The notes beneath the pieces were generated by a model that was not told the origin of the DNA, did no database searches, and worked only from the letters and a program-made list of their open reading frames with translations. Shown in pieces: positions 20,530 to 42,872 of a DNA stretch of 64,000 nt (position 1 is its first letter; each line of letters opens with the position of its first letter). Both the position numbers and the translations under genes were made by a program. This stretch comes from Candidatus Omnitrophota bacterium (GTDB lineage Bacteria > Omnitrophota > Omnitrophia > Omnitrophales > Aquincolibacteriaceae), in NCBI GenBank assembly GCA_043821445.1, contig JBDRCT010000003.1, positions 5,440 through 69,439 of the forward strand, given 5' to 3'.

Positions 20530-20672
20530 TTAGACTTATCCTTATTCCTTGATGCAGAATGATTTAAGACGATTTAAGACGTTATTATATGTTAGTTTCC
20601 AGACGGGGTCAATTGACGGATAACCTCTATTTACCTTGACCCTCTTTCTCCATTTGCTATGATTCCACTCCT

Positions 20673-21830
20673 ATGGAATTCATCGCAAATGCCACGTTAT
20701 TTCTCCTCCTTTTCATCCTGGCAGGCTGGATCTATCGCAGCTGGCGATCGTTATCCGAATTGAAGCAAGCACCCATCTTGAAGCTCACGGGGTTTGCATC
20801 CCGTCAAGGAAAAGTTTCGATCCTTATTCCCGTTAAGAATGAAGAGAAAAATATCAAGGATTGCGTCCAACCTCTTCTCGCCCAACTTCGTGAGGGCGAT
20901 GAGATCCTTGTCGTCAATAACTGTTCCGTGGACAGAACAGAAGCGATCCTTAAGAAGCTGGGGGCCATTGAGATCCGATCCGAAGATCTAGCTGGAAATT
21001 CACGCGCAAAGTTCAAATACCTTAACACCCCCTCCACTCCAGGGGGATGGACGGGCAAGAATTTCGCCCTTTACCTCGGGATCGAACATGCGGCAGGCGA
21101 CTGGTTGCTTTTCACTGACGCGGATACTTGCCACGAACCCGGGAGCCTCAACGCCACCCTTTCCTTTGCAGAAGAACGGAAGCTCGACCTCTTAACACTC
21201 CTGCCTCGTTGCCTCGCCCACGGCTTTTGGGAAGAGGTGATCCAACCCTGCGCAATGGGCTACATGGGACTTTGGTTCCCCGTCCAAAAGATCAATGATC
21301 CAAGATCCAAGGTTTATTTCGGGAATGGACAATACTTGCTCGTACGTGCGGAACATCACCGGAAGATCGGCGGACACGAGGGCGTAAAGGAAGCCTTTCT
21401 TGAAGACTTTGCGTTGATGAAAAAGACAAAAGAAACGGGAGCCCGCGGGATGTGCGCTTTCGGAATGGAGATCTACGGCACAAGAATGTATGAATCGCTT
21501 GACGCAATCTGGCGAGGCTGGCGCCGGATCTTCCTTCACGCATTCGAACAAAAACCGGAACTGATCTTGAAATACGGCCTGAGCGTTTTTTTCTTTTCAG
21601 TTTTCCCTTTTATAGCGCTCGTCATACTCCCTAGATCTTTCTCCGCCTCTCTGCTTCTTTGCGTCTTGATCCTGGGCATAACTCTCGCGACCGCCTTCAA
21701 GGCCTACGCCATCGTCAAAGCTAGAAGGCGTTATGCCTTCCTACATCCACTCGCGGCACTGGTCTTCACGGCCATTCTCCTCGACGCCTTTCAAATGGCC
21801 CTTCTCAAACGCCAAACCCACTGGCGTTAA
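20673..21830 (+). CDS. family 2 glycosyltransferase, polytopic membrane protein
   Basis: 385 aa. N-terminal TM, GT-A domain (ILIPVKNEEKNI...VVNNCSVDRTEAI, TDADT DxD-like), three or four C-terminal TM helices. The only plus-strand gene; divergent from lysS. Confidence 0.75.
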   Translation: MEFIANATLFLLLFILAGWIYRSWRSLSELKQAPILKLTGFASRQGKVSILIPVKNEEKNIKDCVQPLLAQLREGDEILVVNNCSVDRTEAILKKLGAIEIRSEDLAGNSRAKFKYLNTPSTPGGWTGKNFALYLGIEHAAGDWLLFTDADTCHEPGSLNATLSFAEERKLDLLTLLPRCLAHGFWEEVIQPCAMGYMGLWFPVQKINDPRSKVYFGNGQYLLVRAEHHRKIGGHEGVKEAFLEDFALMKKTKETGARGMCAFGMEIYGTRMYESLDAIWRGWRRIFLHAFEQKPELILKYGLSVFFFSVFPFIALVILPRSFSASLLLCVLILGITLATAFKAYAIVKARRRYAFLHPLAALVFTAILLDAFQMALLKRQTHWR

Positions 21831-21840
21831 CACAAAAAAA

Positions 21841-21872
21841 GCGTTATCTTGAATTTTTGCCCAAGATAACGC
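21841..21872. terminator. bidirectional intrinsic terminator between convergent GT2 and small secreted protein genes
   Basis: 11-bp stem gcgttatcttg / caagataacgc with a 10-nt loop. Preceded by A7 on the plus strand, which reads as U7 on the minus-strand transcript. Confidence 0.7.
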
Positions 21873-21892
21873 CTTTGTGAAATAAGCGGGTC

Positions 21893-22219
21893 TTAGCGAG
21901 AACTACCCTTGTTCGCCTTGCAATTCTTAGAACTCGACTTTCCGCTTTTTTTGGAGGAAAATTTTTCGGTGGAATTCTTTTTTGTTTTTTCCTTTTTCGG
22001 CTTCTCTGTTTTTATTTCACTAGCTTTTGCCCCCGTAACATTCACCCCATCATTCGCTTGGCCGGTCGTTGCATTGCTCACGGAAGTTTCTTCCGTGACG
22101 GTCGCCTGAGAATCCACAGGGACCATCGGATCCAGGTCCTGGGAGATCTCCGCCTGGGCTCCGGGAACACACAAATTCAATAACATCAAAACCAACATCA
22201 CAATGACCATCTTTTTCAT
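21893..22219 (-). CDS. small secreted Lys/Ser-rich protein (hypothetical)
   Basis: 108 aa. Sec signal peptide MKKMVIVMLVLMLLNLCVPGAQA, then a low-complexity K/S/T-rich tail. Last gene of the lipid operon. Confidence 0.5.
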   Translation of the reverse strand: MKKMVIVMLVLMLLNLCVPGAQAEISQDLDPMVPVDSQATVTEETSVSNATTGQANDGVNVTGAKASEIKTEKPKKEKTKKNSTEKFSSKKSGKSSSKNCKANKGSSR

Positions 22220-22265: not shown

Positions 22266-23363
22266 TCAGATTGCCAGATAACCCACCTTGACGGCGTAAC
22301 GGACCAGCGTCTTTAGAAAGGCGTGGTCGGTCTTCGGCATCGGGATCCCGGTACCGCGCAGGATCTCGCGGGTATTGGTGGTATCGAACGTAAGGTGCCC
22401 GTTCAAGTAGCCCAGATAAGGCTCCATCATCGCGAAGACCATTTGCTCTTGCGCTCCCATTTTGCTTTTTTTAAAATACTTCGGGTCGATCACCTCGATC
22501 GGAGGAATGGTCGAATATTCCTCTTCTCCCACCTGTAAGAGCATGCCGATTGAAGGCGGCTTGGACGCCACCACATGGAAAGTCTTATTAATGCTCCGCG
22601 GATTTTTAATGATCGCACAAGTCGCCCGGATCACGAAATCAATAGGCACAATATTGAACGTGTTCTCACGATGTGTGGGGATCTTTGAAAGAACTCCGTG
22701 AGCGAAAAGCTTGATGAAAGGATAGATCACATTGAAATCCGAGACTACGCCGGTCTCGGAATGGCCTACCACAATGCTCGGACGGATGATCGTGACCGGA
22801 AGACCCTTCGTCATTGCTTCGCGTACCTTGGTCTCGGCCTTGTATTTACTCGACTCATAGTAATTCGCAAACACAGGTTTGGCCGGAAGTTCATCCTCTT
22901 TGGAACAATGGTCCCACACGCTCCCGGCCACGAACGCTGTACTGAAATAGACGAACCGCTCAAGTTTTCCTTTTTTACGAAGATCCCAAGCCAGTTCGAG
23001 CGCGTGTTCCGTGCCTCCCACATTGATCTGCTGACATTCCTTTTCGGTCCCGTTCAAGGCCGTAAGTGCCGCAATGTGATAGAAAACCTTGCACTCGCGT
23101 TCCAGGTATTCAAGCTCAGTTTTTTTGATCCCAAATTTGTGATGGGTCACGTCCCCTTCGATCACATGGATGCGGGAACCCAGATGAGAATTAATGTCGA
23201 TCGAAGTAAGGATCTTTTTGACCCGCTCCAAATGGGAAGCGCGGTTCTTCGCGCGGGCCAGGAGCGCGATCTGGGCATTGGTGGTCCGGAGCAGTTCCTT
23301 GACAAGCTCCTGACCCAACACACCGGTGGCACCGGTCATAAAGATCACGTTATGCGTCATCAT
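22266..23363 (-). CDS. thioester-reductase-type SDR (NAD_binding_4 / fatty acyl reductase-like)
   Basis: 365 aa. Rossmann motif FMTGATGVLGQEL, YxxxK YESSKYKAE, FSTAFVAG and IRPSIVVG. These are characteristic of terminal reductase domains and acyl-CoA/ACP reductases. Confidence 0.7.
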   Translation of the reverse strand: MMTHNVIFMTGATGVLGQELVKELLRTTNAQIALLARAKNRASHLERVKKILTSIDINSHLGSRIHVIEGDVTHHKFGIKKTELEYLERECKVFYHIAALTALNGTEKECQQINVGGTEHALELAWDLRKKGKLERFVYFSTAFVAGSVWDHCSKEDELPAKPVFANYYESSKYKAETKVREAMTKGLPVTIIRPSIVVGHSETGVVSDFNVIYPFIKLFAHGVLSKIPTHRENTFNIVPIDFVIRATCAIIKNPRSINKTFHVVASKPPSIGMLLQVGEEEYSTIPPIEVIDPKYFKKSKMGAQEQMVFAMMEPYLGYLNGHLTFDTTNTREILRGTGIPMPKTDHAFLKTLVRYAVKVGYLAI

Positions 23364-24657
23364 ATCTCCTCAAAGCTAAACAAATGTTCTGACCTCCGAA
23401 CCCGAACGAGTTGGAGAGCGCTATATTCACATCCGAGCGCCGGGCCGTGTTCGGCACATAATCCAGATCGCACTCGGGATCCGGTTCTTCATAGTTGATC
23501 GTCGGCGGGATCACGGAATTACGCATGGCCATCAAACAAATAATCGCTTCGACCCCACCGGCCGCCGCGATCATGTGCCCGAGCATGGATTTCGTCGAGC
23601 TCACCGGAACTTTCGACGCGAAAGCGCCCATCACTTTTTTGATGACGAGGGTTTCCAGCAAATCGTTCACGGCGGTGGAAGTCCCGTGCGCATTAATATA
23701 ATCAATATTCTGAGGTCCAACGCAAGCTTTTTCCATAGCAATTTCCATAGCTCGTGCCGCGCCGCGGCCTTCGGGGTCCATATCCGTAAGACGGTATGCG
23801 TCCGCCGTCGAACCGTAACCCACGATTTCCCCATGGATCAGAGCCTTGCGCCTACGTGCGTGCTCCAGCTCTTCCAAGATCAACACCCCTGCGCCTTCGC
23901 CGATTACGAACCCATCCCGTTTTTTGTCGAACGGCCGCGAGGCTTTCTCAGGCTCCTCATTGCGGGTGGAAAGCGCCGTCAATAAACTAAATCCTGCAAC
24001 CCCCATCGGATAGATCATGGAATGGGAACCGCCTGCCATGATAACGTCGGCATCACCGCGCTTTATCCATTCAAAGGCTTCTCCGATCGCCTGTGACGAC
24101 GCCGCGCACGCCGTCAAACAATTCGAAACCGGCCCGCGAATATCAAAAAGACGTGTCAGGTGTGTCACGGTCATGAAGGGCTGATTTTCGAGCTCCCGCA
24201 AAGCACTCATATTCTTGATCGCCAATTGAAGATATTTCCCTTTATCTACAATGTCGGCGCCCCCGACGTTATCTTTCGTAAAAGACGGAACCAAAGTTTT
24301 AATGAACGGACCGAAATCAATCCCGCTGTCGCCTGCGCCAAAATAAATACCGAAACGGTTTGGATTTACGGCAAGCGGTTCCAGGCTGGCGCCTTTGTAA
24401 GCCTCCGCGGCGGCCTGAAGCGCGAAGAAAGTGCTCCGGCTCGCACAGCTGAGCGGCGGATTGCGCTCAAGCCATTTTTCAAATGAGAATCCCTTGACCT
24501 CACCTGCGATGCGCGTCGGAAAACGGCTCGCATCGAAAAGAGTAATGGGACCGATCCCCGACTTTCCTTGTGTCAAACGAAGCCAGGTATCACGCACCGA
24601 ATTTCCAAGGGGTGTGACGGCACCCATCCCAGTAACTACCACTCTACGCTTTAACAT
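23350..24657 (-). CDS. beta-ketoacyl-ACP synthase (KS-alpha, FabF-like; active-site Cys and both His present)
   Basis: 435 aa. TACAASSQAIGEA (Cys), NAHGTSTAVND (His), GHMIAAAG (His). Confidence 0.9.
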   Translation of the reverse strand: MLKRRVVVTGMGAVTPLGNSVRDTWLRLTQGKSGIGPITLFDASRFPTRIAGEVKGFSFEKWLERNPPLSCASRSTFFALQAAAEAYKGASLEPLAVNPNRFGIYFGAGDSGIDFGPFIKTLVPSFTKDNVGGADIVDKGKYLQLAIKNMSALRELENQPFMTVTHLTRLFDIRGPVSNCLTACAASSQAIGEAFEWIKRGDADVIMAGGSHSMIYPMGVAGFSLLTALSTRNEEPEKASRPFDKKRDGFVIGEGAGVLILEELEHARRRKALIHGEIVGYGSTADAYRLTDMDPEGRGAARAMEIAMEKACVGPQNIDYINAHGTSTAVNDLLETLVIKKVMGAFASKVPVSSTKSMLGHMIAAAGGVEAIICLMAMRNSVIPPTINYEEPDPECDLDYVPNTARRSDVNIALSNSFGFGGQNICLALRRYDDA

Positions 24658-25937
24658 TTTTTAAATACCAGGGACGCGTTTTGGCCGCCCAATCCGAATG
24701 TGTTCAGAACGGCCACGTTGACTTGGCAAGATTTCGCTTTATCCTTGACGAATGGCAATGAACATTCCGGATCCGGGCTCTCAAGATTGACGACCGGAGG
24801 CACCTGTCCCTTTTTCGTGGTCATGGCCGCAACCACCGCCTCCACGCTCCCGGTTCCATAAACCAGATTCCCGGTCACGGGTTTTACCGCGGTGACGTGA
24901 AGCTTTTTGAAAGTGGAGGCATAAAAAGAATGGACTGCGAGCGACTCCTGGACGTCCTCCTGCGGAATGCCGCTCCCGTTCGCCACAAGGACATCAACAT
25001 CCGCGGGTTCGAGCGCGGCATCTTCGAGGGCCCGGCGGATCGCCACGCGCTTTCCCGTAAAGTCATCCGAATCGCGCGGATCATAATTAAAATCCGAGGA
25101 GGATCCATACCCTACGATTTCAGCATAGATCGATGCCCCACGCTTTTTCGCACTTTCAAGAGATTCCAAGACCAAGATCCCCGCACCTTCTCCCAGCACG
25201 ATCCCGTCGTGTTTTTTGTCAAAAGGACAATAAGCTTTTTCAGGCAGCTCTTCGCGTGTCGAAAGAAGACCGAGAAGCTGGAAACGCGAGATCCCCATTG
25301 CGTTAAGCTTAGAGTCCGTGCCGCCCGCAAGCATGATGTCCGCATCCCCGCGCTCGACCACGCGGTACGCTTCTCCGATCGCTTGCGTGCCCGCGGCCGA
25401 AGACGTCGTGATGGTATTGTTCGGCCCCCGGAGCTGATTCGCAACGGAGATATGACAGGCCGGCATATTCGGGAGATATTTCAGGAACCAGAGAGGAAAA
25501 AGCGAGCGGATGCCATCTTGCCCGAACTTGGTCATGGAGAAATGTCCGTTCTCATCCAGACCATTCCTGAAGCCCACCCCAATTTCGTCGAGGTCGTTAT
25601 TGATGACCCCGGTCCCCAGCGTCACACCGATACGTGTGGGATCATAATGTTCCGGAGAAAGCTTGGCGTCTTTAAGCGCGAGGCGGCTTGCGGCAACGGC
25701 CATTTGGATCTCGCGGGACATCAGCTTGATGGATTTGCGGTTCTCGATGAATTCTTTCGGTTCGAACCCGGACAACATCCCAGCATATTTGAAAGAGGGA
25801 CAATGGAGCCTAAGAGGATCGGAGCTCTGGATCGCGGAACGCCCGTGAAGCGCAGCATCCCAGTAAGGTTCCCAGCCGTTCCCGCACGGCGTGATAACCC
25901 CGAAACCAGTGATCACGACACGGCGTTTTTTAGTCAT
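24651..25937 (-). CDS. KS-like chain-length-factor (CLF/KS-beta) partner
   Basis: KS fold. Active-site Cys replaced (TTSSAAGTQAIGEA) and both catalytic His replaced (LVANGSGIP; GNLVYGTGS). Start taken at MTKKRRVV (ATG 25937). 7-nt overlap with the KS-alpha gene. Confidence 0.8.
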   Translation of the reverse strand: MTKKRRVVITGFGVITPCGNGWEPYWDAALHGRSAIQSSDPLRLHCPSFKYAGMLSGFEPKEFIENRKSIKLMSREIQMAVAASRLALKDAKLSPEHYDPTRIGVTLGTGVINNDLDEIGVGFRNGLDENGHFSMTKFGQDGIRSLFPLWFLKYLPNMPACHISVANQLRGPNNTITTSSAAGTQAIGEAYRVVERGDADIMLAGGTDSKLNAMGISRFQLLGLLSTREELPEKAYCPFDKKHDGIVLGEGAGILVLESLESAKKRGASIYAEIVGYGSSSDFNYDPRDSDDFTGKRVAIRRALEDAALEPADVDVLVANGSGIPQEDVQESLAVHSFYASTFKKLHVTAVKPVTGNLVYGTGSVEAVVAAMTTKKGQVPPVVNLESPDPECSLPFVKDKAKSCQVNVAVLNTFGLGGQNASLVFKKC

Positions 25938-26016
25938 GATTACCTGCGCATTGTTTGATCCAGGACAACCATGACTGTCTGAGTCGCCCTGCATAAAGAA
26001 AAAAAAGACTTGGACA

Positions 26017-26532
26017 TCATGACGGTTGGTCGCCCTGTGTTATGGGCCGTCCCTCGATCTTGTTTTGAAGGATGGACGAGCCTCGCTCCGCTTCGCGAGC
26101 GGGTGGAAGGATCTTCTTGCGGATATTAAAATAATCCATGAAAGCCTCGTGAAATGTGATGGACTTCGTCTGCTCCGCGGAAAGACCGCTCACCGCCATG
26201 AGCAAAAGTTTCGCTCGTGCCACCAATCCTTCAGCACATGTGATCGTCGCTTCCAACCAGCCGCCTTCGGCCCCAAGACTTTCGGACCAAGCCTCGATCT
26301 GAAGGGGGGTGCCGGACTTCGGAATCTTTGTGATGGTCGCGTTTTCGATCTTTGCAAAAATGAGATCTTTTTGGTAATCACTTTCCGCACCGACCAAAAG
26401 ACCGCCGGTCTGCGCCATCATCTCAATAAAGAGAACTTCCGAACTATAGGGAGCTCGGGGGACTTTGGCGAAAGCAACGGCCTTTTCCCCTTTGCGGATC
26501 GAATAGACTTCTTCAAGAAGAAGCCAACGCAT
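26017..26532 (-). CDS. hotdog-fold (FabA/FabZ-like) dehydratase
   Basis: 171 aa. Single hotdog domain with the FIEMMAQTGGLLVG core. Embedded between the CLF and PPTase genes. Confidence 0.55.
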   Translation of the reverse strand: MRWLLLEEVYSIRKGEKAVAFAKVPRAPYSSEVLFIEMMAQTGGLLVGAESDYQKDLIFAKIENATITKIPKSGTPLQIEAWSESLGAEGGWLEATITCAEGLVARAKLLLMAVSGLSAEQTKSITFHEAFMDYFNIRKKILPPAREAERGSSILQNKIEGRPITQGDQPS

Positions 26533-26533
26533 G

Positions 26534-26974
26534 TTATCTCCAGATCATGGCCTGTGCGCCCACCAGGTCCCCGCTCCGGAAAAAATGCCCTTCCCCACGA
26601 TAAAGCTTCTTGGTGCGCCCGGTTCGCCATTCCATCTCAAAGTGATCGCCTCCGCATCGTTTCATCCGCATGTCTTGAAACCCCTCGAGCCCCATCCAGG
26701 CTTCACCGCATGCCTTGAAAAACGCTTCCTTGGCCGTAAAAAGTTCGGCAAATCCTTTCAGGGAAAGGTGATTGAAGGAACGGCGTTCCGAGAAATTCAG
26801 GAAACGCTCACGAACATAACCCCTGTGGCGAGAAAGGAATTGCCTTATACGATTGCGGGACACCAGATCAACACCCACGCCGCACAGTTTGGCGGGCCGT
26901 CCCACGATCGTTTTTTGAAAGCTGGACGAACCTTGTCCCAGACGGCGGGAGGATTTTCGTTTTACGAGCAGCAT
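26534..26974 (-). CDS. AcpS-type 4'-phosphopantetheinyl transferase
   Basis: 146 aa. GVGVDLVSRNRI (Mg/CoA site) and FTAKEAFFKACG (AcpS signature). True start may lie downstream of the tracked ATG. Confidence 0.7.
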   Translation of the reverse strand: MLLVKRKSSRRLGQGSSSFQKTIVGRPAKLCGVGVDLVSRNRIRQFLSRHRGYVRERFLNFSERRSFNHLSLKGFAELFTAKEAFFKACGEAWMGLEGFQDMRMKRCGGDHFEMEWRTGRTKKLYRGEGHFFRSGDLVGAQAMIWR

Positions 26975-27375
26975 TGATCGGAGCAGGAATTCTTGCCTAA
27001 GCGATCACTGAGATAACGAAGGAGCATCTTTACCGTAAAACAATCCGCCAACTTCGTGATCTGCGGATCTTTGGTGAATTCTTCAAGCTCAAGATAAGGG
27101 AGCTTCACGCGAAGTTCCGCAAGACCTTCCACCGTGACCACGCCTTCCCTCACGAAACGCTCATCATTTAAAAGATGGCTCGGAAAAAGATCGCCGGCTG
27201 GGATCTTGAGATCGAAAGCCTTTTCAAGGCGGAAAACGATATCGATAAAATCGATGGACTCCGCGCCAAGGTCCCGCTTCAGGGAAGCTTCCGGTGTGAT
27301 CTCGGATTCATCCACACCCAGCGCGCCAGCAAGTGTTTGCTGAACTTTCGTAAAGAGCTCTTTCTCCATGATCAT
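26962..27375 (-). CDS. acyl carrier protein with C-terminal extension
   Basis: 137 aa. ACP motif DLGAESIDFIDIV (Ser attachment site), followed by an extra ~60-aa tail ending with a Cys-rich SCSDQCCS. Confidence 0.8.
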   Translation of the reverse strand: MIMEKELFTKVQQTLAGALGVDESEITPEASLKRDLGAESIDFIDIVFRLEKAFDLKIPAGDLFPSHLLNDERFVREGVVTVEGLAELRVKLPYLELEEFTKDPQITKLADCFTVKMLLRYLSDRLGKNSCSDQCCS

Positions 27376-27397
27376 TCTAGCTTCCTTCCTAAGTTGT

Positions 27398-27826
27398 CTA
27401 TGACAATGCGGATGATTGCGGGTTCTTCACTCTGGCCAAAGTCAACTTGGCCGATACGGCGACATCGCCGTGGTAAAACAACTTCGCATCCCAGGTCGTT
27501 TCCTCGCCCTCGCTTTGCGTGAGCATGAGCCGGCTTTCCCATTCGTCGCCGGGCCTGAGATATTTCGTGAACCGGGTCGCGCGGATTTGCTTCAAAAAAT
27601 AATGCTGCCCCTCACCGCTCGCGATCGATGCCAAATACCGCTCTGCGGTCTGTTTAAGCATCTCAAGTGCCAGCACTCCGGGCAACACGGGAAATCCTGG
27701 AAAATGATCTTTAAAGAATTCGGAGTCTTCAGGAATACGGCCGCAGGCCGTAATCCCCTCTCCTTCTTTTATCCAAAGGACCTTTTCGATCGCAAGCGCT
27801 GTCATGATTAAAACTCCGGGAAACAA
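27398..27826 (-). CDS. FabZ-like 3-hydroxyacyl-ACP dehydratase
   Basis: 142 aa. Canonical HFPGFPVLPGVLALEMLKQ motif. Confidence 0.85.
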   Translation of the reverse strand: MFPGVLIMTALAIEKVLWIKEGEGITACGRIPEDSEFFKDHFPGFPVLPGVLALEMLKQTAERYLASIASGEGQHYFLKQIRATRFTKYLRPGDEWESRLMLTQSEGEETTWDAKLFYHGDVAVSAKLTLARVKNPQSSALS

Positions 27827-27873
27827 CCAACGTGGAAAGGGAAACGATTTTGATTTGCGACCGGCGTTCCCCG

Positions 27874-28503
27874 TTATCCGTTACTCTCTTTTTCCAAAAC
27901 ATAGATCCCGTTCAAAATTCGGAATCCCGAAAGCCAAGTATAAAAACTTTTAAAAGAACTGACTTCAAAACCAGCCGCTTTAAAAAACTCCTGCCACTCG
28001 CCATCCTTACGAAACTGATGCGGATGTGCCATGAATTCCACATTCAAAAGCCTGTCACGGCAAATGGTCCAGAACCGGCCGGCTGCATGATGATAAAGGT
28101 CCTCTACGACCACGACCTTCTGGCGCGTCACTCGCCGCACTTCTTTGAAAAGCGCCTGCGGATCCTGCGCGTGATGAAGCATGGTCATGAGAATCGTCAC
28201 ATTAAAACTTTGATCCGGGAACGGGATCTTGACGCCATCATACAGCACCACCGGCGCCTTCCGATAACCGGGGCTTACAACATCCAGAACCAGATGCTCA
28301 TGCCCCCGCGTCTTGAGAGGCCCGGCATAAAAACCCCAACCGCCGCCTAGATCCAGAATCCGGCTTTTCCGAGGGATCCGATTTTCAAAAAGCTGGACGA
28401 TCTTTTCTGCCCGGGTCTCAAGAGCGCTATGAGCGAAATACCTGACAATTCCGTCCAGCACCCGGCGCTGAAAGACCTGCAGATGATTCTTAATGATGTT
28501 CAC
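27874..28503 (-). CDS. class I SAM-dependent methyltransferase
   Basis: 209 aa. Motif I ILDLGGGWGFYAGPL. First gene of the lipid operon. Confidence 0.75.
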   Translation of the reverse strand: MNIIKNHLQVFQRRVLDGIVRYFAHSALETRAEKIVQLFENRIPRKSRILDLGGGWGFYAGPLKTRGHEHLVLDVVSPGYRKAPVVLYDGVKIPFPDQSFNVTILMTMLHHAQDPQALFKEVRRVTRQKVVVVEDLYHHAAGRFWTICRDRLLNVEFMAHPHQFRKDGEWQEFFKAAGFEVSSFKSFYTWLSGFRILNGIYVLEKESNG

Positions 28504-29296: not shown

Positions 29297-29848
29297 TTAT
29301 AAAGAAACACGTTCCAAGGGTTTGACCTGGATCTCGATCTTCAACTTTCTCGAGACATTCGCTAAAAGAGTTTTGAGCTCCGCCAGAACTCCTTTATCCG
29401 GGACATCCACTTCCAAGAGCATTGCGTAAGTGGTCTTGGCGCCCTTGCCTAAGATCCGGCTGTCGAGATCCGTAATGTTGACACCCATCCCCGCCAACGC
29501 GCGGCTCACTTCATAAACGATCCCGGTACGGTCCTTGCCGAATGCAGTGATCATGCAGGGAAGAGAGCCTTTTGCATGTTTTTTCCCACGTGGGATCTTC
29601 CCTTTCAACTCGGTCACATGACAATCCAGGGACCAGGGAATGCCCCTCAAGAGCTCCAAACCTTGCAGCACACGAACCCAAGACACAGGCGACGGAAGGC
29701 AGGCGGTCATCATCATGACGAATCGCCCTTCCAAAAGAGTCATGCTAATATCCTCAAGATTACATCCCCGGGCGAACAAAAGACCGCTTACTTTGGCGAT
29801 GATACCAGGCTTATCTTTACCACTGACCGTGATGAGGATTTTTTTCAT
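29297..29848 (-). CDS. tandem ACT-domain regulatory protein (GcvR-like)
   Basis: 183 aa. Two ACT repeats (ILITVSGKDKPGIIAKVS...; MITAFGKDRTGIVYEVS...). Confidence 0.6.
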   Translation of the reverse strand: MKKILITVSGKDKPGIIAKVSGLLFARGCNLEDISMTLLEGRFVMMMTACLPSPVSWVRVLQGLELLRGIPWSLDCHVTELKGKIPRGKKHAKGSLPCMITAFGKDRTGIVYEVSRALAGMGVNITDLDSRILGKGAKTTYAMLLEVDVPDKGVLAELKTLLANVSRKLKIEIQVKPLERVSL

Positions 29849-31371
29849 TTTTTCTTCTTACGCTCCAGATATTTGGATAGTTGTTCAAGTCCCTGATTAA
29901 GAAGCTGATCTGCCCCGCTCTGCAACAACTTTGAACCGATATAATTCAGGTCCGGCTGGACCGCGGCATTCGGGAAAACGCCGCTGTAACGGAACGGTAT
30001 CATGACTTGGCCGTTCCGGTCTGCGATCAATTCCATCTCGCGAATCTTTTTCATTAAATAAGCTGAAATGGCTTGAGATAACAACAACTGCATGGAACCT
30101 TCGACACGCTTGTCCAGGATCTCATAGGTCCCCTGGCCGGACAACTGATAGTTGGAATGTGTCAGCCGGAATTCGTTGATCTGCATGATCCCGGTCTGTA
30201 CCTCATACAACACTTGCAAGGACTGGAACGGCGTGTCACGCTCCTTTAACATTGCATTCAATTCCGGCGGAGGCTCCCCGCCCAGGACATTTGTGATCGC
30301 AAGCACCGGGGAAAGACGGTCAAAAACCTCTTTGATAAGATTCCGGTTCCTGAGAGCACCGTCCAGGATCTCGATCGTTCCCTGTCCCTTAAGAGATCGT
30401 TGGAGTGTGGCGGGATTCGCTCCCTCGAAAGAAAGTTGCGCCTTGGCACTAAGACGGCCGGTCATATAATCGCTCCTCTTATAAACGGCTGGAATCACCG
30501 ATTCCATGTCCAGGTCACGCACCTCAAGCGTCCCTTCAAAATGCGGCAGGTTGTCGATCAATTTGAGATGGCCTTTGAACATGGCCTTCTCAGGACCATA
30601 ACGGAGCAAAAGATCCAGCGATCGCAACCCAAGGTCCAGATCCCCCTCCGCTTCGAGATTTCTTTTCGAGGAGTTAAACACAGCCCCCCCCGCCGTAAAA
30701 TGGAACAATGATGCGGAAGCTTTCTGCCACACCTCGGCCTCCAGCTTTTCGATCTCCAGTCCATAGACTGGCTCGACTGTTTCGTCCGTAAAGTGAATGG
30801 ACGCATCCCGGACGAGGATCTTCCCAAGCTTGAATTCCCAACCTTGAGTAATGCGATTTAATTTCATTAACGAAATATTTTCGACTCCCTCCGAAACTTC
30901 GGCCGTCGGAAGAAGACTTCCCTGAGAGAGAGCGACCGCAACGGCCGGAGCAGGAGTGGCGGATTCTTTGACGACCTGAAAATTCCAGGCTCCTCCACGA
31001 TCGCGTTTGAGGAAGATCTCGGGACTCTGGATCACGATTTGAGACATGCTGAAATGCTTCTGGAAGGCCGAAGTCAGATCAGCGTCGATCCGGACCTGAT
31101 CACTTTGAAAGATTTTCTCGAGGCTCTTGGGATGATAGAACTTGAGACTGGCCACCTGAAGTTGCGGCTGGGGTTTCCATTGGAACTTGATATTGCCAAG
31201 CTCTGCGCGAAAACCGGTCTGCTGGGTGAGATGCTTTTCGAATTCCGCCCGGAACATATTGGGATCAAAGTTACGGATCGCAAAGTAACCCACCGCACCG
31301 AGAATCATTCCGAGGATCAAAAGTACGGCAAAAAGACCTCCCAGGAATTTCAGGAAACCTCGTAAGACCAT
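29845..31371 (-). CDS. AsmA-family membrane-anchored protein
   Basis: 508 aa. N-terminal TM (LFAVLLILGMILGAVGYFA), long periplasmic beta-rich region, K-rich C-terminus. Second AsmA-like paralogue in the window. Confidence 0.5.
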   Translation of the reverse strand: MVLRGFLKFLGGLFAVLLILGMILGAVGYFAIRNFDPNMFRAEFEKHLTQQTGFRAELGNIKFQWKPQPQLQVASLKFYHPKSLEKIFQSDQVRIDADLTSAFQKHFSMSQIVIQSPEIFLKRDRGGAWNFQVVKESATPAPAVAVALSQGSLLPTAEVSEGVENISLMKLNRITQGWEFKLGKILVRDASIHFTDETVEPVYGLEIEKLEAEVWQKASASLFHFTAGGAVFNSSKRNLEAEGDLDLGLRSLDLLLRYGPEKAMFKGHLKLIDNLPHFEGTLEVRDLDMESVIPAVYKRSDYMTGRLSAKAQLSFEGANPATLQRSLKGQGTIEILDGALRNRNLIKEVFDRLSPVLAITNVLGGEPPPELNAMLKERDTPFQSLQVLYEVQTGIMQINEFRLTHSNYQLSGQGTYEILDKRVEGSMQLLLSQAISAYLMKKIREMELIADRNGQVMIPFRYSGVFPNAAVQPDLNYIGSKLLQSGADQLLNQGLEQLSKYLERKKKK

Positions 31372-37419: not shown

Positions 37420-37733
37420 GACCTTCTTGATCCTTTCGTTTGATCCATTAAAATGTCGTCATTCTGAGTCTGATGCTTTCTTGCGAAAGCAAGAATCAGA
37501 CGAAGAACCTCAAAACGAGATCCTTCTCCCGCCCTCGGCGGGATCAGGATGACGCGGCTTTTTGTTAAGGCTCTCAGTGAGGGCCTATTTATTTGCGGTG
37601 AAAACTGCGGAACTTAGGCGGGTGTAAAGCTTGTGGAAAGAAAAAGCGTCAACTTATTCCGAGGCGGATCTTTAACGAACCTTAAGGCCTGTCGGGGGCC
37701 TTCCTAAAAGAACCTAAAAGACCGGACCTGAGT
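37420..37733 (-). promoter_or_regulatory. structured ~310-nt leader/5' UTR of rne plus terminator hairpin of the upstream pilus operon
   Basis: Two hairpins at the secretin stop (accggacctga gt tcaggccggt, 37721-37743) and aaggcc...ggcctt. A GAAA-tetraloop hairpin ttcttgc gaaa gcaagaa lies within an extended imperfect stem around 37470-37510. A cccgcc ctc ggcggg hairpin is also present. Confidence 0.45.
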
Positions 37734-39410
37734 TCAGGCCGGTTTGTCCTTGTTCGTATCGTCCGAGACTGCTGGTTTCTCAGAATCTTTCACGCCCGGC
37801 GCGGCATCCGTGGCAGCCGTTTTTTGCTGGGCTTGAGCATCTTTTGACTGGTCATTCTTCCCGTCAACTTTGGCACCCGCAGGCTGTCCCTGCGAATCCA
37901 CCGTAGTAACTGTTACAAAAAAGAGCGTTTCGTTTTTACTATTATCTGCCATATCCTGTCGCTTGGAGCGGAACAATTTCCCCAGCAGAGGGATATTCCC
38001 CAAAAAAGGCACTTTATCTTCTGTCGAACCCACACTATCTGACATCAATCCGCCGATCGCAATGGTCTGGCCGCTTTGGATCAATACCTGGGTCATCGCT
38101 TTGGTGATGTTGAAGGAGGGCGCTGCCAATCCTCCAGCACCCGGAATGAATGTGATCAGAGGACCGGCACTGCTTATTTCCGGCTTCAGGTCGACAAGAA
38201 TCTCCTCGGCCGAATTAATGTGGGGCGTAACATTCAAAACAATGCCCAAATTTCTGTAATTATAGCCAGACACTTCCATACTGCCGGTCGTTTCGTTCCT
38301 TTCAAAATTTGGGATCGGATAGTCCGACCCCACCTGAATACTGGCCTTCTGATTATTCAGGACAACGATCCGCGGATTGGAAATCACCTTCGTATTGACC
38401 CGGGTCTCCAGAAAATTTAACATTGCAGAAAAACTCGAGAAATCCAAAGTACCGTACTGAAGGGAAGGCGTATCCCCTGCTACCTTAGCCACATAAGGAA
38501 GGCCACGCGCATCGACTGGATTCACTACGTAATCTGCCACGGCGACGGCGCCGCCAGAGGTGGATCCCGCTAAAACTGGGAAAAACTGATTCAACGCCGG
38601 CGAAGGAGCTTCGGATGTTTGAGTAAATGGAAATGTTGTGGGACGAGTACTTCCGCTGGTAAGCCCGCCCGCAACATTCCAATCAATGCCAAGGTTTTCG
38701 ATATTAGAAACCTCTGTATTAACGATCTTGGAATCGATAAAAGCCTGGGAAGTAATCTTATCGAGTTTTTTGATCACTTCCCCGATGCGGTAGAGGTTCG
38801 TGGGGATGTCGGTCACGACAAGCATGTTGGTACGCTCCGAAGACTTTATCTTGCCGCGCTCACTCAGCATATCCATGACCGAGGCCTGGATCTCCTTGGC
38901 CTTGGAATAATTCAGGACAAAGGTCTTTGTCTCGACCGGCTCGAGTTTCATTTCTTCGCGGGTCGTCACACGGATAATGTTCCCATCGCGTTCGAAAACA
39001 TAGTTATAGGTCCTCAAGATGACACTGAGCGCTTTTTCCCAGGGAACATTATCCAACCGAACGGTCACAAGACCCTTCACCTCCGGACCGGTCACAATGT
39101 TGACGTTACTTTTCATGCTTAGCACGCGAAGCACGCTTCCGATGTCCGCATCCTTGAAATCCAAGCTGATCGTGTCATCCTCGGCTACCGGACCAGACGC
39201 CGCGGCAGGCGCTGAAGCCGCTTCCGGCACAGAAGCCGTTTGCGTTACTGCGACCGGATTGGGGTCTGCGGCAAGGACGACACCGGCCACACAAAAGAGA
39301 CACGGGAGCAATACAAGAAAAACGGATGTCCACGGTCTTGCAGCCTGGGCCTTTTGCGAAGGCGGGATAAAATGATGAGACGTTTGTTTCATGAAGTTCA
39401 CGAGCTCCAT
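37734..39410 (-). CDS. pilQ: type IV pilus / T2SS secretin (PilQ/GspD family)
   Basis: 558 aa. C-terminal secretin domain (VLIQSGQTIAIGGLMSDSV...VPFLGNIPLLGKLFRS). N0/N1-type N-terminal domains. Confidence 0.85.
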   Translation of the reverse strand: MELVNFMKQTSHHFIPPSQKAQAARPWTSVFLVLLPCLFCVAGVVLAADPNPVAVTQTASVPEAASAPAAASGPVAEDDTISLDFKDADIGSVLRVLSMKSNVNIVTGPEVKGLVTVRLDNVPWEKALSVILRTYNYVFERDGNIIRVTTREEMKLEPVETKTFVLNYSKAKEIQASVMDMLSERGKIKSSERTNMLVVTDIPTNLYRIGEVIKKLDKITSQAFIDSKIVNTEVSNIENLGIDWNVAGGLTSGSTRPTTFPFTQTSEAPSPALNQFFPVLAGSTSGGAVAVADYVVNPVDARGLPYVAKVAGDTPSLQYGTLDFSSFSAMLNFLETRVNTKVISNPRIVVLNNQKASIQVGSDYPIPNFERNETTGSMEVSGYNYRNLGIVLNVTPHINSAEEILVDLKPEISSAGPLITFIPGAGGLAAPSFNITKAMTQVLIQSGQTIAIGGLMSDSVGSTEDKVPFLGNIPLLGKLFRSKRQDMADNSKNETLFFVTVTTVDSQGQPAGAKVDGKNDQSKDAQAQQKTAATDAAPGVKDSEKPAVSDDTNKDKPA

Positions 39411-39423
39411 TGTATCACAAAAC

Positions 39424-39795
39424 CTATGCTTTTTCCTCTTCCCTTATCCAAAGCGTTTTTTCTTCCCCCCCCACAGAAATGACGACATGGTCCTTCAATA
39501 TCTTAACGACCGTTGCATCTCCCACAGTTTCACCCTTCAAATAGGACTTTCCGTTCAAAATGGCCATCGAATGTTCGCCCGGATCATAGATAATACCTTC
39601 CAGTTTAACGCCGGATGAGGTTGTGGACACTGAAGTGTTGTCGCCCCCGTCGAGCGGCACAAAGGGATCCCGCCTGTTACCGGAATCGTAAAGAACTTCA
39701 GAAGCGGCAAACACCCCCGACGCCAGAGCTAGCAGTGCTATCGCCAAAAAAAATGCGCTCTTCTTACTTCTTAGCATTCGCCACCTTCTTAGCAC
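39424..39795 (-). CDS. pilP: PilP-like pilot protein
   Basis: 123 aa. Signal peptide plus a small beta-domain (VKLEGIIYDPGEHSMAILNGKSYLKGETVGDATVVKI). Position between pilO and pilQ. Confidence 0.55.
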   Translation of the reverse strand: MLRRWRMLRSKKSAFFLAIALLALASGVFAASEVLYDSGNRRDPFVPLDGGDNTSVSTTSSGVKLEGIIYDPGEHSMAILNGKSYLKGETVGDATVVKILKDHVVISVGGEEKTLWIREEEKA

Positions 39796-40447
39796 CCGCT
39801 GCCTTCTTCGTCTTCGCGGGTGGCGCCACTTGCGGCGGAGCTTTCAGGATCGCCCAAAGCTTCAGCTCCGCAATATGCCGTCCCGGCGTTTTTTTATCCG
39901 GCACGACCTCGAGGCTCTGTATTCTTAAAAGTTTTCCATGACTCTCAATGCGGCTCATCAAATTGCCAAGGTCATGATAGCCGCCGTGCACCGTGAATTC
40001 ATAGCCACGCGGTTGATATTTCAAGTGATAGGGTGCCGGAAAAGCCACTTTCGCGGTCAAAGGCTTCGAGGTCAACACTTCCACGCGCGACTCACTCGCC
40101 ATTTTTGAAGCGGAGCCCAACAATAGATCCATATCCTCGACCGTAAAAACACGAGCCCAGGTACTTTCAATGAGCGAACCGAACACCTTCTGATTCTCTT
40201 CCCATTCCGGCCGTTTCTTATTCAGGTCATTGACCTGGCGGATCTGAGTTTCCATGCTTTGAATATCACGCCGGAGCATGGGACGCTCGATCCAAGCCGG
40301 AATGACCAGAAAAACCACCAACAATAAAAAACCTATCGCACACAAAAAACCGACCACCCAGGTTTTTTTATCGACACTTTTCAGAAATGCTATAACATCG
40401 GCAAAAGGCAGGTTGAGCGGCTTCATGGTTTGGAGGTCACTCCCCAT
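39764..40447 (-). CDS. pilO: PilO
   Basis: 227 aa. Single TM, coiled coil, periplasmic domain, K/A-rich tail. Gene order pilM-N-O-P-Q. Confidence 0.6.
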   Translation of the reverse strand: MGSDLQTMKPLNLPFADVIAFLKSVDKKTWVVGFLCAIGFLLLVVFLVIPAWIERPMLRRDIQSMETQIRQVNDLNKKRPEWEENQKVFGSLIESTWARVFTVEDMDLLLGSASKMASESRVEVLTSKPLTAKVAFPAPYHLKYQPRGYEFTVHGGYHDLGNLMSRIESHGKLLRIQSLEVVPDKKTPGRHIAELKLWAILKAPPQVAPPAKTKKAAGAKKVANAKK

Positions 40448-41001
40448 TCAATTTGAGCGACAAAAATGGTCCCTTCCGTCTTTTCGTTGGCCCTTTTAGA
40501 AGTCGCTACCGCGACGGATGTTTGGAGCGGCAATTTCGTTTTCAGTTTCTGGAAATATTCCTCGATCTGTTCAATGCCGGTCTGTGTGCGGGATGCCAAC
40601 ACCACACCCTCCAGGGTCAACCGGCATCCACCGCCTTCCCGCTCCACTTTGAGTTCTGTAAGCCATCCCCTTGGAGGCAGGAAATCGCTCGCCCAAAAAA
40701 GTATCTGGGTGATGGGTTCCTTATTGAGCACGTTCGTTTCCAGAAAATCTTTTTCGCCCTTCATTTCAACCGCAACCTGCTGCTCCAGGGTCTTCAGCTG
40801 TGCCATGAGGGGACTCAACCTCGCCCATTCCTTACGCACGCCTTCGTAGGCAGAGCGCGCCTTGAGATAGTCTCCGTAGAAAAAAACCGTCATAAGAAGA
40901 AAAAGCACCCCGGCCAGAAGAGCCAGTGGAATATAGGGAATGCGCGTCGCGTTCGATTTCCCTTTCAGGAGCTCCTGAGGCAAAAGATTGATCTTGATCA
41001 T
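40423..41001 (-). CDS. pilN: PilN
   Basis: 192 aa. Starts MIKINLLPQE (PilN signature), then a TM. Confidence 0.75.
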   Translation of the reverse strand: MIKINLLPQELLKGKSNATRIPYIPLALLAGVLFLLMTVFFYGDYLKARSAYEGVRKEWARLSPLMAQLKTLEQQVAVEMKGEKDFLETNVLNKEPITQILFWASDFLPPRGWLTELKVEREGGGCRLTLEGVVLASRTQTGIEQIEEYFQKLKTKLPLQTSVAVATSKRANEKTEGTIFVAQIEWGVTSKP

Positions 41002-42095
41002 TCTTCGCGAAGCCCCAGTCCCAGCGCTACGGGTAAGAGAGATGTATTCGTTTTGAGAAGTTCGGGATCAACGCCCGGGGCCCATTTGATCTTCGGAAGG
41101 ATGTCCATAGTCACGACCGGGATCTGCAATCCTTCGCTTAATGCCTTCAAAACGGCGGGATGAGACACTACACCGCTCAAAAAGAGTTTTGCGACAGGTT
41201 TCGATTGTCCGGATTGATCATGATAATAGTCAAAAGAAACACGCAGGTCCCGGATCAACCCTTCAAGACTTTCCGTGATCGCTTGCACTTCATCGGGCGC
41301 CAGAGTTCCATTATTTTCAAAAAGATTTTCGATCTTTTCATCCGCGAGACTGGAACGGGTCTTGAACCGCTTGAAAAGATCGTAGGCCCCGTAAGAAATG
41401 TCACGGACAAAGCGGGGCTTCCCTTCCCGGATGATCCCGAGGGTTGATATCTCAGTGCCAAGGTCCAAAATGCCGCTGTGCCTAGAGAAATCTTCGAGGT
41501 GAAAATATTCCAAGGCGGCCATCGCCGAAAGAATGTCGACGTCCACCACCGACAGGCGGCATTCCAAATTACGGAAGATCTCAAGCGTCGGCTCAAGTTC
41601 CTGGCGTTTGATGGCGACCAACATTACTTCCATCTTTACGCCGTCATCGGTCGCGAAGGCCTCCTCCACCACCGCACAATCGAGCACCACATCGTTCAGC
41701 TCGAACGGAATGTACTGCTCGGCTTCGTATTTCATGGCACTGCGGAGATCATCGGCTTTCATTTTCGGAAAAGGGATGAAACGGATCACAACTCCGTGCC
41801 CCTTGAGGGCCACGCGGATCCCGTCCTTCCGGAACTTCTTTCCGTCCAGGAACGGTTTCAGGATCAAGGACGGTTTCTGGTCCTGGGAAGCGTTCTTGAT
41901 AATATCGAGATGATGAACAAAAAGATGTCCGGGACGTTTTTCAAGTTCAAGCAGTACCGTCCGCATGCGGCCAAGATCACACGCCGTGACCTTAGAAACC
42001 GCCGTTTTTTTCGACAGGATCATGGATGTAACACCATTTAAAAAATTTGAGAACTGTTGATCGGGCGAAGCCAACTTGTTGGAATCGTTATTCAT
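40998..42095 (-). CDS. pilM: PilM (actin-like ATPase)
   Basis: 365 aa. FtsA/actin fold. Upstream of pilN with a 4-nt overlap. The true start is probably internal to the tracked ORF. Confidence 0.7.
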   Translation of the reverse strand: MNNDSNKLASPDQQFSNFLNGVTSMILSKKTAVSKVTACDLGRMRTVLLELEKRPGHLFVHHLDIIKNASQDQKPSLILKPFLDGKKFRKDGIRVALKGHGVVIRFIPFPKMKADDLRSAMKYEAEQYIPFELNDVVLDCAVVEEAFATDDGVKMEVMLVAIKRQELEPTLEIFRNLECRLSVVDVDILSAMAALEYFHLEDFSRHSGILDLGTEISTLGIIREGKPRFVRDISYGAYDLFKRFKTRSSLADEKIENLFENNGTLAPDEVQAITESLEGLIRDLRVSFDYYHDQSGQSKPVAKLFLSGVVSHPAVLKALSEGLQIPVVTMDILPKIKWAPGVDPELLKTNTSLLPVALGLGLREE

Positions 42096-42133
42096 GAGAG
42101 AGAGATTAACAGAAAATCTCCAAGAAAACAGCC

Positions 42134-42168
42134 AAAAAAAACCCGCCCTGCTTTTTTCAAGCAGGGCG
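42134..42168 (-). terminator. Rho-independent terminator of the pilin gene
   Basis: On the minus transcript: 10-bp stem cgccctgctt / aagcagggcg with a 5-nt loop, followed by U8. Confidence 0.85.
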
Positions 42169-42201
42169 AGTCGAAAACCACTTTGTCTTGTTCCTTACTG
42201 A

Positions 42202-42681
42202 TTACCCACCAATGGCCGTACCACCCGCGCAACCCGTATCGGCCGCGGTCGGCGCTACACCTGCCGTCGGACCATAAACAACACCCGCCTGGTCAATGCA
42301 GTAGGTGTTTTCCGCAGCAGCCGTCGGCGTCGCCAGCAGAGAATACGTGCTGGAAGGAGAGGCGACCGTAAGGTACGTCAGAGTGAACCCATGCTTGACT
42401 CCGGCTTCGACCCACGAATCATCAAGATACGCAGGGCCCGTCGCCGGAGCGGTCGTCAATGCGGCAATATCAGCCGGATAGTCCGGAGGATTCTGCGCGG
42501 CACGATAACTTTCAGCAGCTCCGCTGAATGTCCTCAGATCCGACTTGATGGCACCCTCATTGGCATTGATTCGCGCCCGGAGAAGATTGGGGATGGCAAT
42601 AGCGGCCAAGAGCCCGATGATCGCAACTACGATCATGATCTCCACCAGCGTAAAACCCTTCCTATTTAATTTGATAAACAT
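42202..42681 (-). CDS. pilA: type IV pilin (prepilin with N-terminal methylation motif)
   Basis: Start MFIKLNRKGFTLVEIMIVVAIIGLLAAIAIP is a class III signal (G|FTLVE). ATG at 42681 is preceded by AGGAGG. The tracked ORF has a 23-aa upstream extension. Confidence 0.85.
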   Translation of the reverse strand: MFIKLNRKGFTLVEIMIVVAIIGLLAAIAIPNLLRARINANEGAIKSDLRTFSGAAESYRAAQNPPDYPADIAALTTAPATGPAYLDDSWVEAGVKHGFTLTYLTVASPSSTYSLLATPTAAAENTYCIDQAGVVYGPTAGVAPTAADTGCAGGTAIGG

Positions 42682-42872
42682 GTTATTCCTCCTGTTTCTA
42701 TGTTTGCCACTGCCTACTACTAGCCTAAGCTGGTATACATCATACGACAATACGTTGGATAACTAAACTAGTTTTTTTGTTATCCGAGTTATATCCCACA
42801 ACTTTAATAAGCATCACTGAAGGGCCCTGAGGCAGATTCCTGCATGTTTTTGCGTCGGGAGGAAGGATTTCC

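Follow-up and report, generated by a model that had tools for sequence, protein, structure and literature searches.

The stretch analysed here, 64,000 nucleotides of contig JBDRCT010000003.1 from a member of the Candidatus Omnitrophota and referred to below as the window, carries on its minus strand an operon of eight genes that is real and whose order is kept across this uncultured phylum. It encodes a ketosynthase (KS) and a chain length factor-like paralogue (CLF), two hotdog-fold proteins of the dehydratase type (DH1 and DH2), an acyl carrier protein (ACP), a phosphopantetheinyl transferase (PPTase), a methyltransferase (MT) and a thioester reductase (TR). With a probability slightly above one half (about 0.55), the system is read as a specialised lipid synthase of the fatty acid synthase (FAS) type, not a type II polyketide synthase (PKS), that would release its chain reductively. 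The product would probably be destined for an envelope glycolipid; that it is an alkyl glycoside is a tentative suggestion, judged less likely than not. A specialised pathway is favoured because the release genes are modular, DH1, ACP and PPTase score below the curated thresholds, KS and CLF contain an insertion, and TR is translationally coupled. Transcribed from 28503 to 22266, the genes follow each other head-to-tail:

27874 to 28503, minus strand: MT, class I S-adenosylmethionine (SAM)-dependent methyltransferase, first gene of the operon (Pfam Methyltransf_11/23/25)
27398 to 27826 (true start probably 27805), minus strand: DH1, FabZ/ApeI-like 3-hydroxyacyl-ACP dehydratase (Pfam FabA)
26962 to 27375, minus strand: ACP, 137 amino acids (PP-binding)
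26534 to 26974 (5' end uncertain), minus strand: AcpS-type PPTase (Pfam ACPS)
26017 to 26532, minus strand: DH2, hotdog protein devoid of the catalytic His (weak NCBIfam FabZ match)
24651 to 25937, minus strand: CLF, Cys-less FabF paralogue (N- and C-terminal ketoacyl-synt domains)
23350 to 24657, minus strand: KS, FabF-like ketosynthase (TIGR03150, PRK07314)
22266 to 23363, minus strand: TR, stand-alone thioester reductase (NAD_binding_4, TIGR01746)

CLF and KS overlap by 7 nt and KS and TR by 14 nt, with the remaining gaps measuring 1-79 nt. The start of DH1 is placed at 27805 because the homologue in the related locus L001 comprises 135 amino acids, while the 5' end of the PPTase gene is uncertain because the ACPS domain begins only at residue ~31. 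A preliminary description had listed nine co-directional open reading frames (ORFs), and all nine are found on the minus strand at or close to the positions first assigned. Its compact FAS/PKS-like gene set is borne out by Pfam, NCBIfam and structure matches: KS and CLF as a pair, two proteins of the hotdog fold, an ACP and a PPTase dedicated to the system, a methyltransferase, and a short-chain dehydrogenase/reductase (SDR) of the thioester-reductase type.

Gene order was examined in 35 Omnitrophota-type loci. All eight genes from MT to TR are detected in 25 of them, in the identical order in every case (25/25), which is a conservation far beyond chance. The core order remains constant while the surroundings change between lineages. 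In most lineages SecA, Lnt, optionally an aldo-keto reductase, and an oppositely oriented FabL are found upstream, and an oppositely oriented family 2 glycosyltransferase (GT2), optionally an MMPL transporter, LysRS, LolE and LolD are found downstream; the upstream region is occupied by Def-ACT-AsmA instead in the window, and by DnaG in the ADurb.Bin292 lineage. The FabL-type SDR, a putative enoyl reductase (ER), is encoded divergently within 3 kb upstream of MT in 22 of 27 loci and scores 316 bits on NF005975 (cutoff 328), well above its FabG scores; rearrangement upstream of the operon accounts for its absence from the window. The preliminary statement that ketoreductase (KR), ER, acyltransferase and thioesterase are all lacking holds for the window and fails, as far as the ER is concerned, for the relatives. 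This also weakens the presumption of an unsaturated chain: since FabL is associated with the operon in relatives, a saturated chain would be favoured over a polyene. The nearby GT2, already pointed out before, proved to be a conserved neighbour (within 4 kb downstream of TR in 23/26 loci), and an MMPL/HAE3 transporter is found downstream in 10/18 loci. Occasional extras are the aldo-keto reductase (10/27 loci) and a fatty acid desaturase (3/26 loci), and in some Omnitrophota lineages the operon is flanked by one to three B12-radical SAM genes together with a second kind of GT2. Flanking genes for B12-binding radical SAM proteins, HpnJ/BchE-like, lie directly next to the operon in loci L085/L086 (15153-20408), L012 and L027 (3270-4877); they give weak "lipid biosynthesis B12/rSAM" matches, and the second GT2 is AglJ-like. 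The closest CLF homologues are 88-97% identical, those with a name all stemming from metagenome-assembled genomes (MAGs) of Candidatus Omnitrophota; identity reaches 95-97% in the best match of CLF, and ACP alone has a match that is 100% identical. Exact look-ups of CLF, MetRS, Tmk and the giant ORF of the window retrieved no protein.

The ketosynthase pair carries most of the argument on the origin of the system. The Cys-His-His triad of KS is intact, and the protein shares 42% identity with FabF of E. coli. On PRK07314 it scores 479.8 bits (cutoff 387); on the FabF model TIGR03150 it reaches 488.9 bits (cutoff 493.75), in a match that is split into two stretches. This miss by 5 bits and the split match are attributed to an insertion of ~15-19 residues behind the region that reads GSGIGG in E. 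coli FabF; the insertion is absent from the latter, shared by KS and CLF, and also present in Planctomycetia homologues. The FabF region in which it is located lines the acyl pocket. CLF is 37% identical to KS, and its homologues have a length of 428 amino acids. The earlier reading of CLF as Cys-less is confirmed, with the triad positions occupied by Ser/Asn/Asn in the window and mostly by Ser/Asn/His in relatives. At the Cys position, relatives from Omnitrophota have Ser, Ala, Thr or Val, and those from Planctomycetia have Ala, Glu or Asp; Gln, the mark of type II PKS CLFs, was not found at this position, which is Ser in the window. In the CLF family characterized by the motif PNMPACH, the Cys is missing in 82 out of 82 recovered members, including lone Planctomycetes copies with Asp or Glu, and more than 590 CLF relatives are among the matches listed for species-representative genomes.

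Compared with solved structures, KS scores highest on FabF of B. subtilis (389 bits), followed by chain 9s5h_B of what we take to be the anammox heterodimer (297), the actinorhodin KS (268), 7f27 (238) and Iga11 (214); CLF likewise scores highest on FabF (286 bits), followed by Iga11 (175), 9s5h_C (172), 7f27 (169) and the actinorhodin CLF (162). Both proteins are far closer to FabF than to the type II PKS or ishigamide KS/CLF structures, and the type II PKS lineage proposed in the preliminary description is wrong. Judged by sequence, KS and CLF are FabF-derived and not of the type II PKS or aryl-polyene type. When 1.84 billion representatives were searched with a profile, most of the matches were multi-KS megasynthases, KS-CLF fusions and Cys-less FabF-like proteins without a name. 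Among the metagenomic representatives, fusions of ~790-880 amino acids that combine an active Cys-His-His KS with a triad-less KS-like domain, in the order KS-CLF, are common (P0123, P0124, P0126, P0140 and others). The Planctomycetota loci L045-L082 encode solitary Cys-less FabF paralogues that have Asp or Glu in place of the Cys, share the PNMPACH motif and the insertion, and have no active KS next to them; Cys-less FabF paralogues are also carried by R. baltica (Rattray 2009, PMC2649909).

By analogy, the nearest biochemical precedent would be the pair amxFabF2/amxFabFmut of anammox bacteria, a KS/CLF-like heterodimer that decarboxylates malonyl-ACP and has been presented as the first case of a CLF in fatty acid synthesis (bioRxiv 10.64898/2026.05.19.726425). 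Anammox cluster I and the operon have in common an active FabF-derived KS with a Cys-less FabF paralogue encoded directly upstream (here with the 7-nt overlap), a dedicated ACP that departs from the canonical form, a FabZ variant (amxACP and amxFabZ in anammox), and the affiliation to the PVC superphylum; some Omnitrophota relatives also carry B12-radical SAM genes. The two pairs are not orthologous, as the window KS and CLF score higher on ordinary FabF (389 and 286 bits) than on 9s5h_B and 9s5h_C (297 and 172 bits). The triad of the partner, which is Ser/Asn/Asn(His) here, is replaced in anammox by Val or Thr together with Asn, Glu or Cys. A His-less dehydratase partner, an ACP insertion, an AcpS, a methyltransferase of another type, TR and GT2 further distinguish the operon, which has no phytoene-desaturase homologue.

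The two hotdog proteins differ in their catalytic residues. DH1 matches Pfam FabA (46 bits) and NCBIfam FabZ (68.8 bits, cutoff 113), is ~30% identical to E. coli FabZ, and has homologues that bear a match to the ApeI-like family PF22818 in precomputed annotation. Its His (DHFPGFPVLPG) and Glu (LEMLKQ) motifs are kept in every homologue, and the enzyme is predicted to be catalytically competent. DH2 has no Pfam match and reaches 29 bits on NCBIfam FabZ; most Omnitrophota homologues have Lys, Arg, Ser or Thr instead of the His, and the Glu (IEMMAQT) does not vary. Of the two dehydratases counted earlier, two hotdog proteins remain, one of which, DH2, is without the catalytic His and probably a non-catalytic partner. 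In FabZ dimers each active site combines the His of one subunit with the Glu of the other, and a DH1/DH2 heterodimer would therefore have one active site. Mycobacterial FAS-II (KasA/B, HadAB/BC, AcpM) possesses a heterodimeric dehydratase with one non-catalytic hotdog, an enlarged ACP and a remodelled KS acyl channel. The operon would resemble it, by analogy only, in all three respects; there is no sequence relationship beyond the superfamilies, and the AcpM model gives 28 bits against a cutoff of 146.

ACP is unusual as well. The PP-binding match covers residues 10-64 only, and the protein stays below all NCBIfam ACP cutoffs (57 versus 71). What had been described as a long C-terminal tail is mostly an internal insertion of ~48 residues (~65-112), located between helix III and helix IV according to the alignment to E. 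coli AcpP, plus a short Cys-rich end. The insertion is kept from Omnitrophota to Planctomycetia (Kolteria, Gemmatales) and appears as a folded sub-domain in the AlphaFold2 (AF2) model (pLDDT 86); the solved ACPs matched in the PDB comprise 65-101 amino acids, all of them without it. The Cys-rich C-terminus (window 26962-26985; CSDQCCS, CSDKCCS or CSGTC) is a feature of the close relatives of the window and not of distant ACPs, and is modelled as disordered. PPTase scores 43 bits on Pfam ACPS and remains below the cutoffs of TIGR00556 (38 versus 45) and TIGR00516 (31 versus 60); its homologues have 94-133 amino acids.

The release and tailoring enzymes stand at the two ends of the operon. With MT, all NCBIfam models stay well short of their cutoffs; members of its family occur in Omnitrophota only, with 143 matches in 5.8 billion proteins, and AmxMT1 was not matched in the sequence search with MT. 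The AF2 model (pLDDT 92) retrieved generic class I methyltransferases only in a PDB fold search, with BioC at rank 38. Natural MT-DH1 fusions of 364 and 342 amino acids exist (P0501 and P0505; L083 10001-11095 and L084 6784-7878), the former seen on 12 contigs within an operon that is standard in all other respects, and because of these fusions MT would act in ACP-bound chemistry. TR is matched by NAD_binding_4 (192 bits) and, below its cutoff of 213, by TIGR01746 (174 bits). The motifs GATGVLG and YESSK are readable as the NAD(P)-binding TGxxGxxG and the YxxxK that are expected of a thioester reductase, and the best solved matches are the reductase domain of MxaA, which is alcohol-forming, and then the R domains of PKSs and nonribosomal peptide synthetases.

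That release is separable from the core is seen in a second architecture, which occurs in Planctomycetia and in some MAGs labelled Omnitrophota. There, DH1, the ACP with its insertion, PPTase, DH2, CLF and KS are kept, MT and TR are missing, and a FabG (286 bits, cutoff 298), a hexapeptide transferase, a HAD protein and a class III aminotransferase are present. MT and TR only ever co-occur (26 loci each, none in the second architecture). In the cultured Kolteria novifilia the order is DH1-FabG-ACP-DH2-CLF-KS, with genes for an alpha/beta-hydrolase and a GH3 enzyme behind it. Planctomycetia-type loci have GT2 and FabL on the opposite flank of the core, to which the two genes have shifted jointly. 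It is typical of specialised pathways that the core stays the same and the release chemistry varies. Proteins of the AsmA/YhdP/DUF748 family have been implicated in the transport of lipids to the outer membrane; a gene of the AsmA family lies near the Planctomycetia-type cluster of locus L032 (1127-2209), and a protein of the AsmA/YhdP/DUF748 type is encoded in the window two genes upstream of the operon (29845-31371, minus strand).

The downstream flank in the window contains the following features:

21893 to 22219, minus strand: small Lys/Ser-rich ORF with a signal peptide (no family match in Pfam or NCBIfam)
21837 to 21876, minus strand: terminator-like 17-bp hairpin between the end of the operon and the convergent GT2 gene (consensus scan)
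20673 to 21830, plus strand: polytopic GT2, GT21/HpnB/CruG-like (Pfam Glycos_transf_2, Glyco_transf_21)

The small ORF had been counted as the ninth gene of the operon, outside the range 22266-28503 given for it at the same time; it is kept only in five to six close relatives, with 52-67% identity over ~45 amino acids, and is probably a lineage-specific, co-directional gene that is not part of the system. GT2 runs convergent to the operon, ending 436 bp from the TR stop, with a promoter-like site ahead of it at 20636-20663 (consensus scan). It scores 133 bits on NCBIfam HpnB and 118 bits on CruG, both far below cutoff; GT21, HpnB and CruG are families of lipid-acceptor glycosyltransferases. 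Homology searches including tblastn detected no other KS, DH or ACP and no FabG, FabD, FabH or FabI homologue in the 64-kb window, and tblastn with E. coli AcpP, FabG, FabD, FabZ, FabH and FabI against all loci revealed no canonical FAS gene near the operon. The FabL-type SDR aside, no linked fabD, fabG, fabH or plsX is found in the window or the Omnitrophota-type loci, and a dedicated KR, an adenylating starter enzyme and a thioesterase are absent from the window and the 35 related loci.

Based on these components, a pathway can be proposed. The AcpS-type PPTase would activate the insertion-bearing ACP at Ser40. KS would pair with CLF in the manner of amxFabF2/amxFabFmut and extend the ACP-bound chain with malonyl units, with CLF setting the length; the pair may prime itself through decarboxylation of malonyl-ACP. 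Ketoreduction would be borrowed from a FabG encoded elsewhere, dehydration would be catalyzed by a one-site dehydratase made up of DH1, which provides His and Glu, and the His-less DH2, and the chain would be saturated by the FabL-type enoyl reductase, displaced from the window but adjacent in most relatives. MT would modify an ACP-bound intermediate, before TR would free the chain as an aldehyde or alcohol. Eventually, the membrane GT2 would glycosylate the alcohol, and in many relatives the MMPL/HAE3 pump would export the product to the envelope; glycosylation and export are suggested because a lipid-type GT2 is conserved and an MMPL gene is nearby.

Two further known systems follow a similar logic in part. 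In heterocyst glycolipid synthesis, the terminal thioester reductase of the Hgl PKS frees a long-chain alcohol, from which a glycosyltransferase forms the envelope alkyl glycoside. The proposed sequence of reductive release and glycosylation would be the same, while the type I PKS modules, the different glycosyltransferase family and the DevBCA exporter of the Hgl system have no counterpart here; as already recognised in the preliminary description, the gene set fits neither this system nor that of the aryl polyenes. The rhizobial cluster acpXL-fabZXL-fabF2XL-fabF1XL-lpxXL makes a very-long-chain fatty acid, with KR and ER borrowed from the primary FAS. Set beside it by description only, the operon is comparable in its dedicated ACP and FabZ and its two FabF paralogues; it differs in that an LpxXL acyltransferase is lacking, release would be reductive, and the specialised ACP of R. 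palustris has 94-101 amino acids and no insertion.

Several points weigh against a specialised synthase with reductive release. The pathway is known here from genes alone. No KR, no malonyl transferase and, in the window, no ER is encoded, which implies reliance on genes elsewhere, and the MT fold search, run with a predicted model, gave no clue to a substrate. With 42% identity to E. coli FabF and a score 5 bits under the FabF cutoff, KS could be the working FabF of the cell. Phylum-wide retention in small genomes beside SecA, Lnt and LolDE suits a core function equally well, and the adjacency of GT2 may in part be frozen synteny, as the order GT2-LysRS-LolE-LolD is also conserved.

Part of these points lead to the alternative that survives best, albeit as a rather unlikely one, namely that the operon is the housekeeping type II FAS core of Omnitrophota, with TR and MT forming a side branch. 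It would agree with the near-threshold KS score (488.9 versus 493.75) and the passing of PRK07314, with a PPTase of the AcpS and not the Sfp type, with the FabL-type ER adjacent in 22/27 relatives and with phylum-wide conservation amid housekeeping genes. Moreover, the anammox KS/CLF-like pair can start synthesis by decarboxylation of malonyl-ACP (bioRxiv 10.64898/2026.05.19.726425). The KEGG orthology (KO) table of Seymour et al. 2023, which is a matter of presence or absence only and whose three Omnitrophota genomes are not linked to the operon, points in both directions as far as the accessible part of it goes. For these three genomes that part contains no KO for an ER (K00208, K02371, K10780, K00209) and FabH in one of the three, which would suit a housekeeping role; it also credits all three with fabD, fabG, fabZ, acpP, acpS, plsX and lpx genes. 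As DH1, ACP and PPTase of the operon would probably fall short of such thresholds, the listed fabZ, acpP and acpS suggest separate canonical copies, with the proviso that KOfam thresholds differ from those of NCBIfam. The curated cutoffs are missed by the FabZ (68.8/113), ACP (57/71) and AcpS (31/60) homologues and narrowly by that of FabF, a 137-amino acid ACP with a 48-residue insertion is unprecedented as primary ACP, and fabD, fabG and plsX are never adjacent. A translationally coupled TR would drain a primary FAS, Planctomycetia have the same core with other release genes, and Kuenenia has a full canonical FAS beside divergent FabF paralogues (PMC2649909). A specialised synthase is preferred on these grounds.

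An improbable alternative is that the operon supplies a fatty aldehyde or alcohol for ether-linked glycerolipids, in an ElbD-like role, with GT2 being unrelated. TR is of the alcohol-forming reductase type, B12-radical SAM genes accompany the operon in some relatives, and homologues of ElbD and Mss have been reported in 93 and 15, respectively, of 267 Omnitrophota MAGs (PMC11868695). Against this, an alkyl-dihydroxyacetone phosphate (alkyl-DHAP) synthase, an acyltransferase and a glycerol-linked enzyme are all absent from the loci examined, and a GT2 accompanies the core even where the surroundings are rearranged, another kind of GT2 being added in L085-type loci.

Given a very low probability is a highly reducing type II PKS similar to the aryl-polyene synthases, from which a conjugated polyene would be released as a polyenal or polyenol pigment. 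The combination of a KS/CLF pair with a DH/DH' pair is the architecture reported for aryl-polyene synthases (ApeO/ApeC, ApeI/ApeP), which like the operon have a dedicated ACP (ApeE) and a methyltransferase; a glycosyl/acyl transferase and an MMPL-type exporter also occur in aryl-polyene clusters, DH1 homologues bear the PF22818 ApeI-like match, and no ER is encoded in the window. Unlike the aryl-polyene clusters (ApeO/ApeC, ApeI/ApeP, ApeE, ApeQ, ApeB), the operon is without a KR (ApeQ), an adenylating starter enzyme (ApeH) and a thioesterase (ApeK), and its release would be reductive. For its KS and CLF, FabF (389 and 286 bits) is a much better match than 7f27, Iga11 or the actinorhodin KS/CLF, and the ER that lies beside the operon in most relatives would, if FabL takes part in the pathway, leave no polyene. 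As an aryl-polyene cluster proper the operon is rejected, owing to the missing KR, starter enzyme and thioesterase and the ER in relatives.

Slightly more remote still is the formation of methyl-branched fatty alcohols for ether-linked, possibly membrane-spanning lipids of anaerobic Omnitrophota, similar to branched glycerol dialkyl glycerol tetraethers (brGDGT). In that case MT would introduce the methyl branches, TR would provide the alkyl donor, and the flanking B12-radical SAM enzymes would be responsible for tail modification or coupling.

A ladderane-type cluster has a negligible probability and is effectively refuted for the window, although "ladderane" biosynthetic gene clusters, an antiSMASH label, have been reported in Omnitrophota MAGs (PMC9902471), the combination of FabF, Cys-less FabF, ACP and FabZ follows the logic of anammox cluster I, and radical SAM genes of some relatives match TIGR04072 weakly: the window contains neither a radical SAM nor a phytoene-desaturase-like gene, KS and CLF are no orthologues of amxFabF2/amxFabFmut (FabF gives higher scores than 9s5h_B and 9s5h_C), and ladderanes are known from anammox bacteria only. 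The antiSMASH "ladderane" calls in Omnitrophota and the "ElbD homologues" in 93 of 267 MAGs may in fact be this operon; the supplements of the Ace Lake paper contain no fab terms. An aromatic type II PKS is ruled out by a CLF without the Gln, by FabF as the closest relative of KS and CLF, and by the lack of any cyclase or aromatase gene in the operon or its neighbours (Pfam, NCBIfam).

Outside the operon, all but three of the 53 called ORFs of the window lie on the minus strand, two of the three being short and doubtful, and the GC skew is negative across the whole 64 kb; Rfam gave no match in the window. A giant ORF of 3667 amino acids (52987-63990, minus strand) has a weak Metallophos match and no other recognisable domain, and in the related locus L001 an ORF of 7691 amino acids is found immediately upstream of the operon. 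A supplement of Seymour et al. 2023 has a table of giant ORFs in Omnitrophota. A fusion of 337 amino acids (50552-51565, minus strand) joins a PgsA-like CDP-alcohol phosphatidyltransferase to a PgpA phosphatase. A putative type IV pilus or type II secretion set, read from the translations, occupies ~37700-48000 (minus strand) and consists of a secretin, PilM/N/O-like proteins, a pilin, a PilC-like protein and two GspE/PilB-like ATPases.

Summarizing, a CLF partner in a fatty-acid-type pathway was first reported in a 2026 preprint on anammox bacteria (bioRxiv 10.64898/2026.05.19.726425), and the operon family described here shows that this FAS-type principle, evolved separately from FabF, is far wider in the PVC superphylum. 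Two further parts are unusual, namely a dehydratase partner that has lost the His and an ACP whose 48-residue insertion, modelled as folded, is found in no solved ACP. If the operon were the only fatty acid synthase of the phylum, it would represent an unusual primary FAS. Omnitrophota are widespread, uncultured and mostly ultra-small bacteria with uncharacterised lipids; if the favoured reading is true, a distinctive lipid, i.e., a chain-length-controlled, methyl-modified alcohol or glycoside, would be a testable biomarker of the phylum and a handle on the biology of its envelope.

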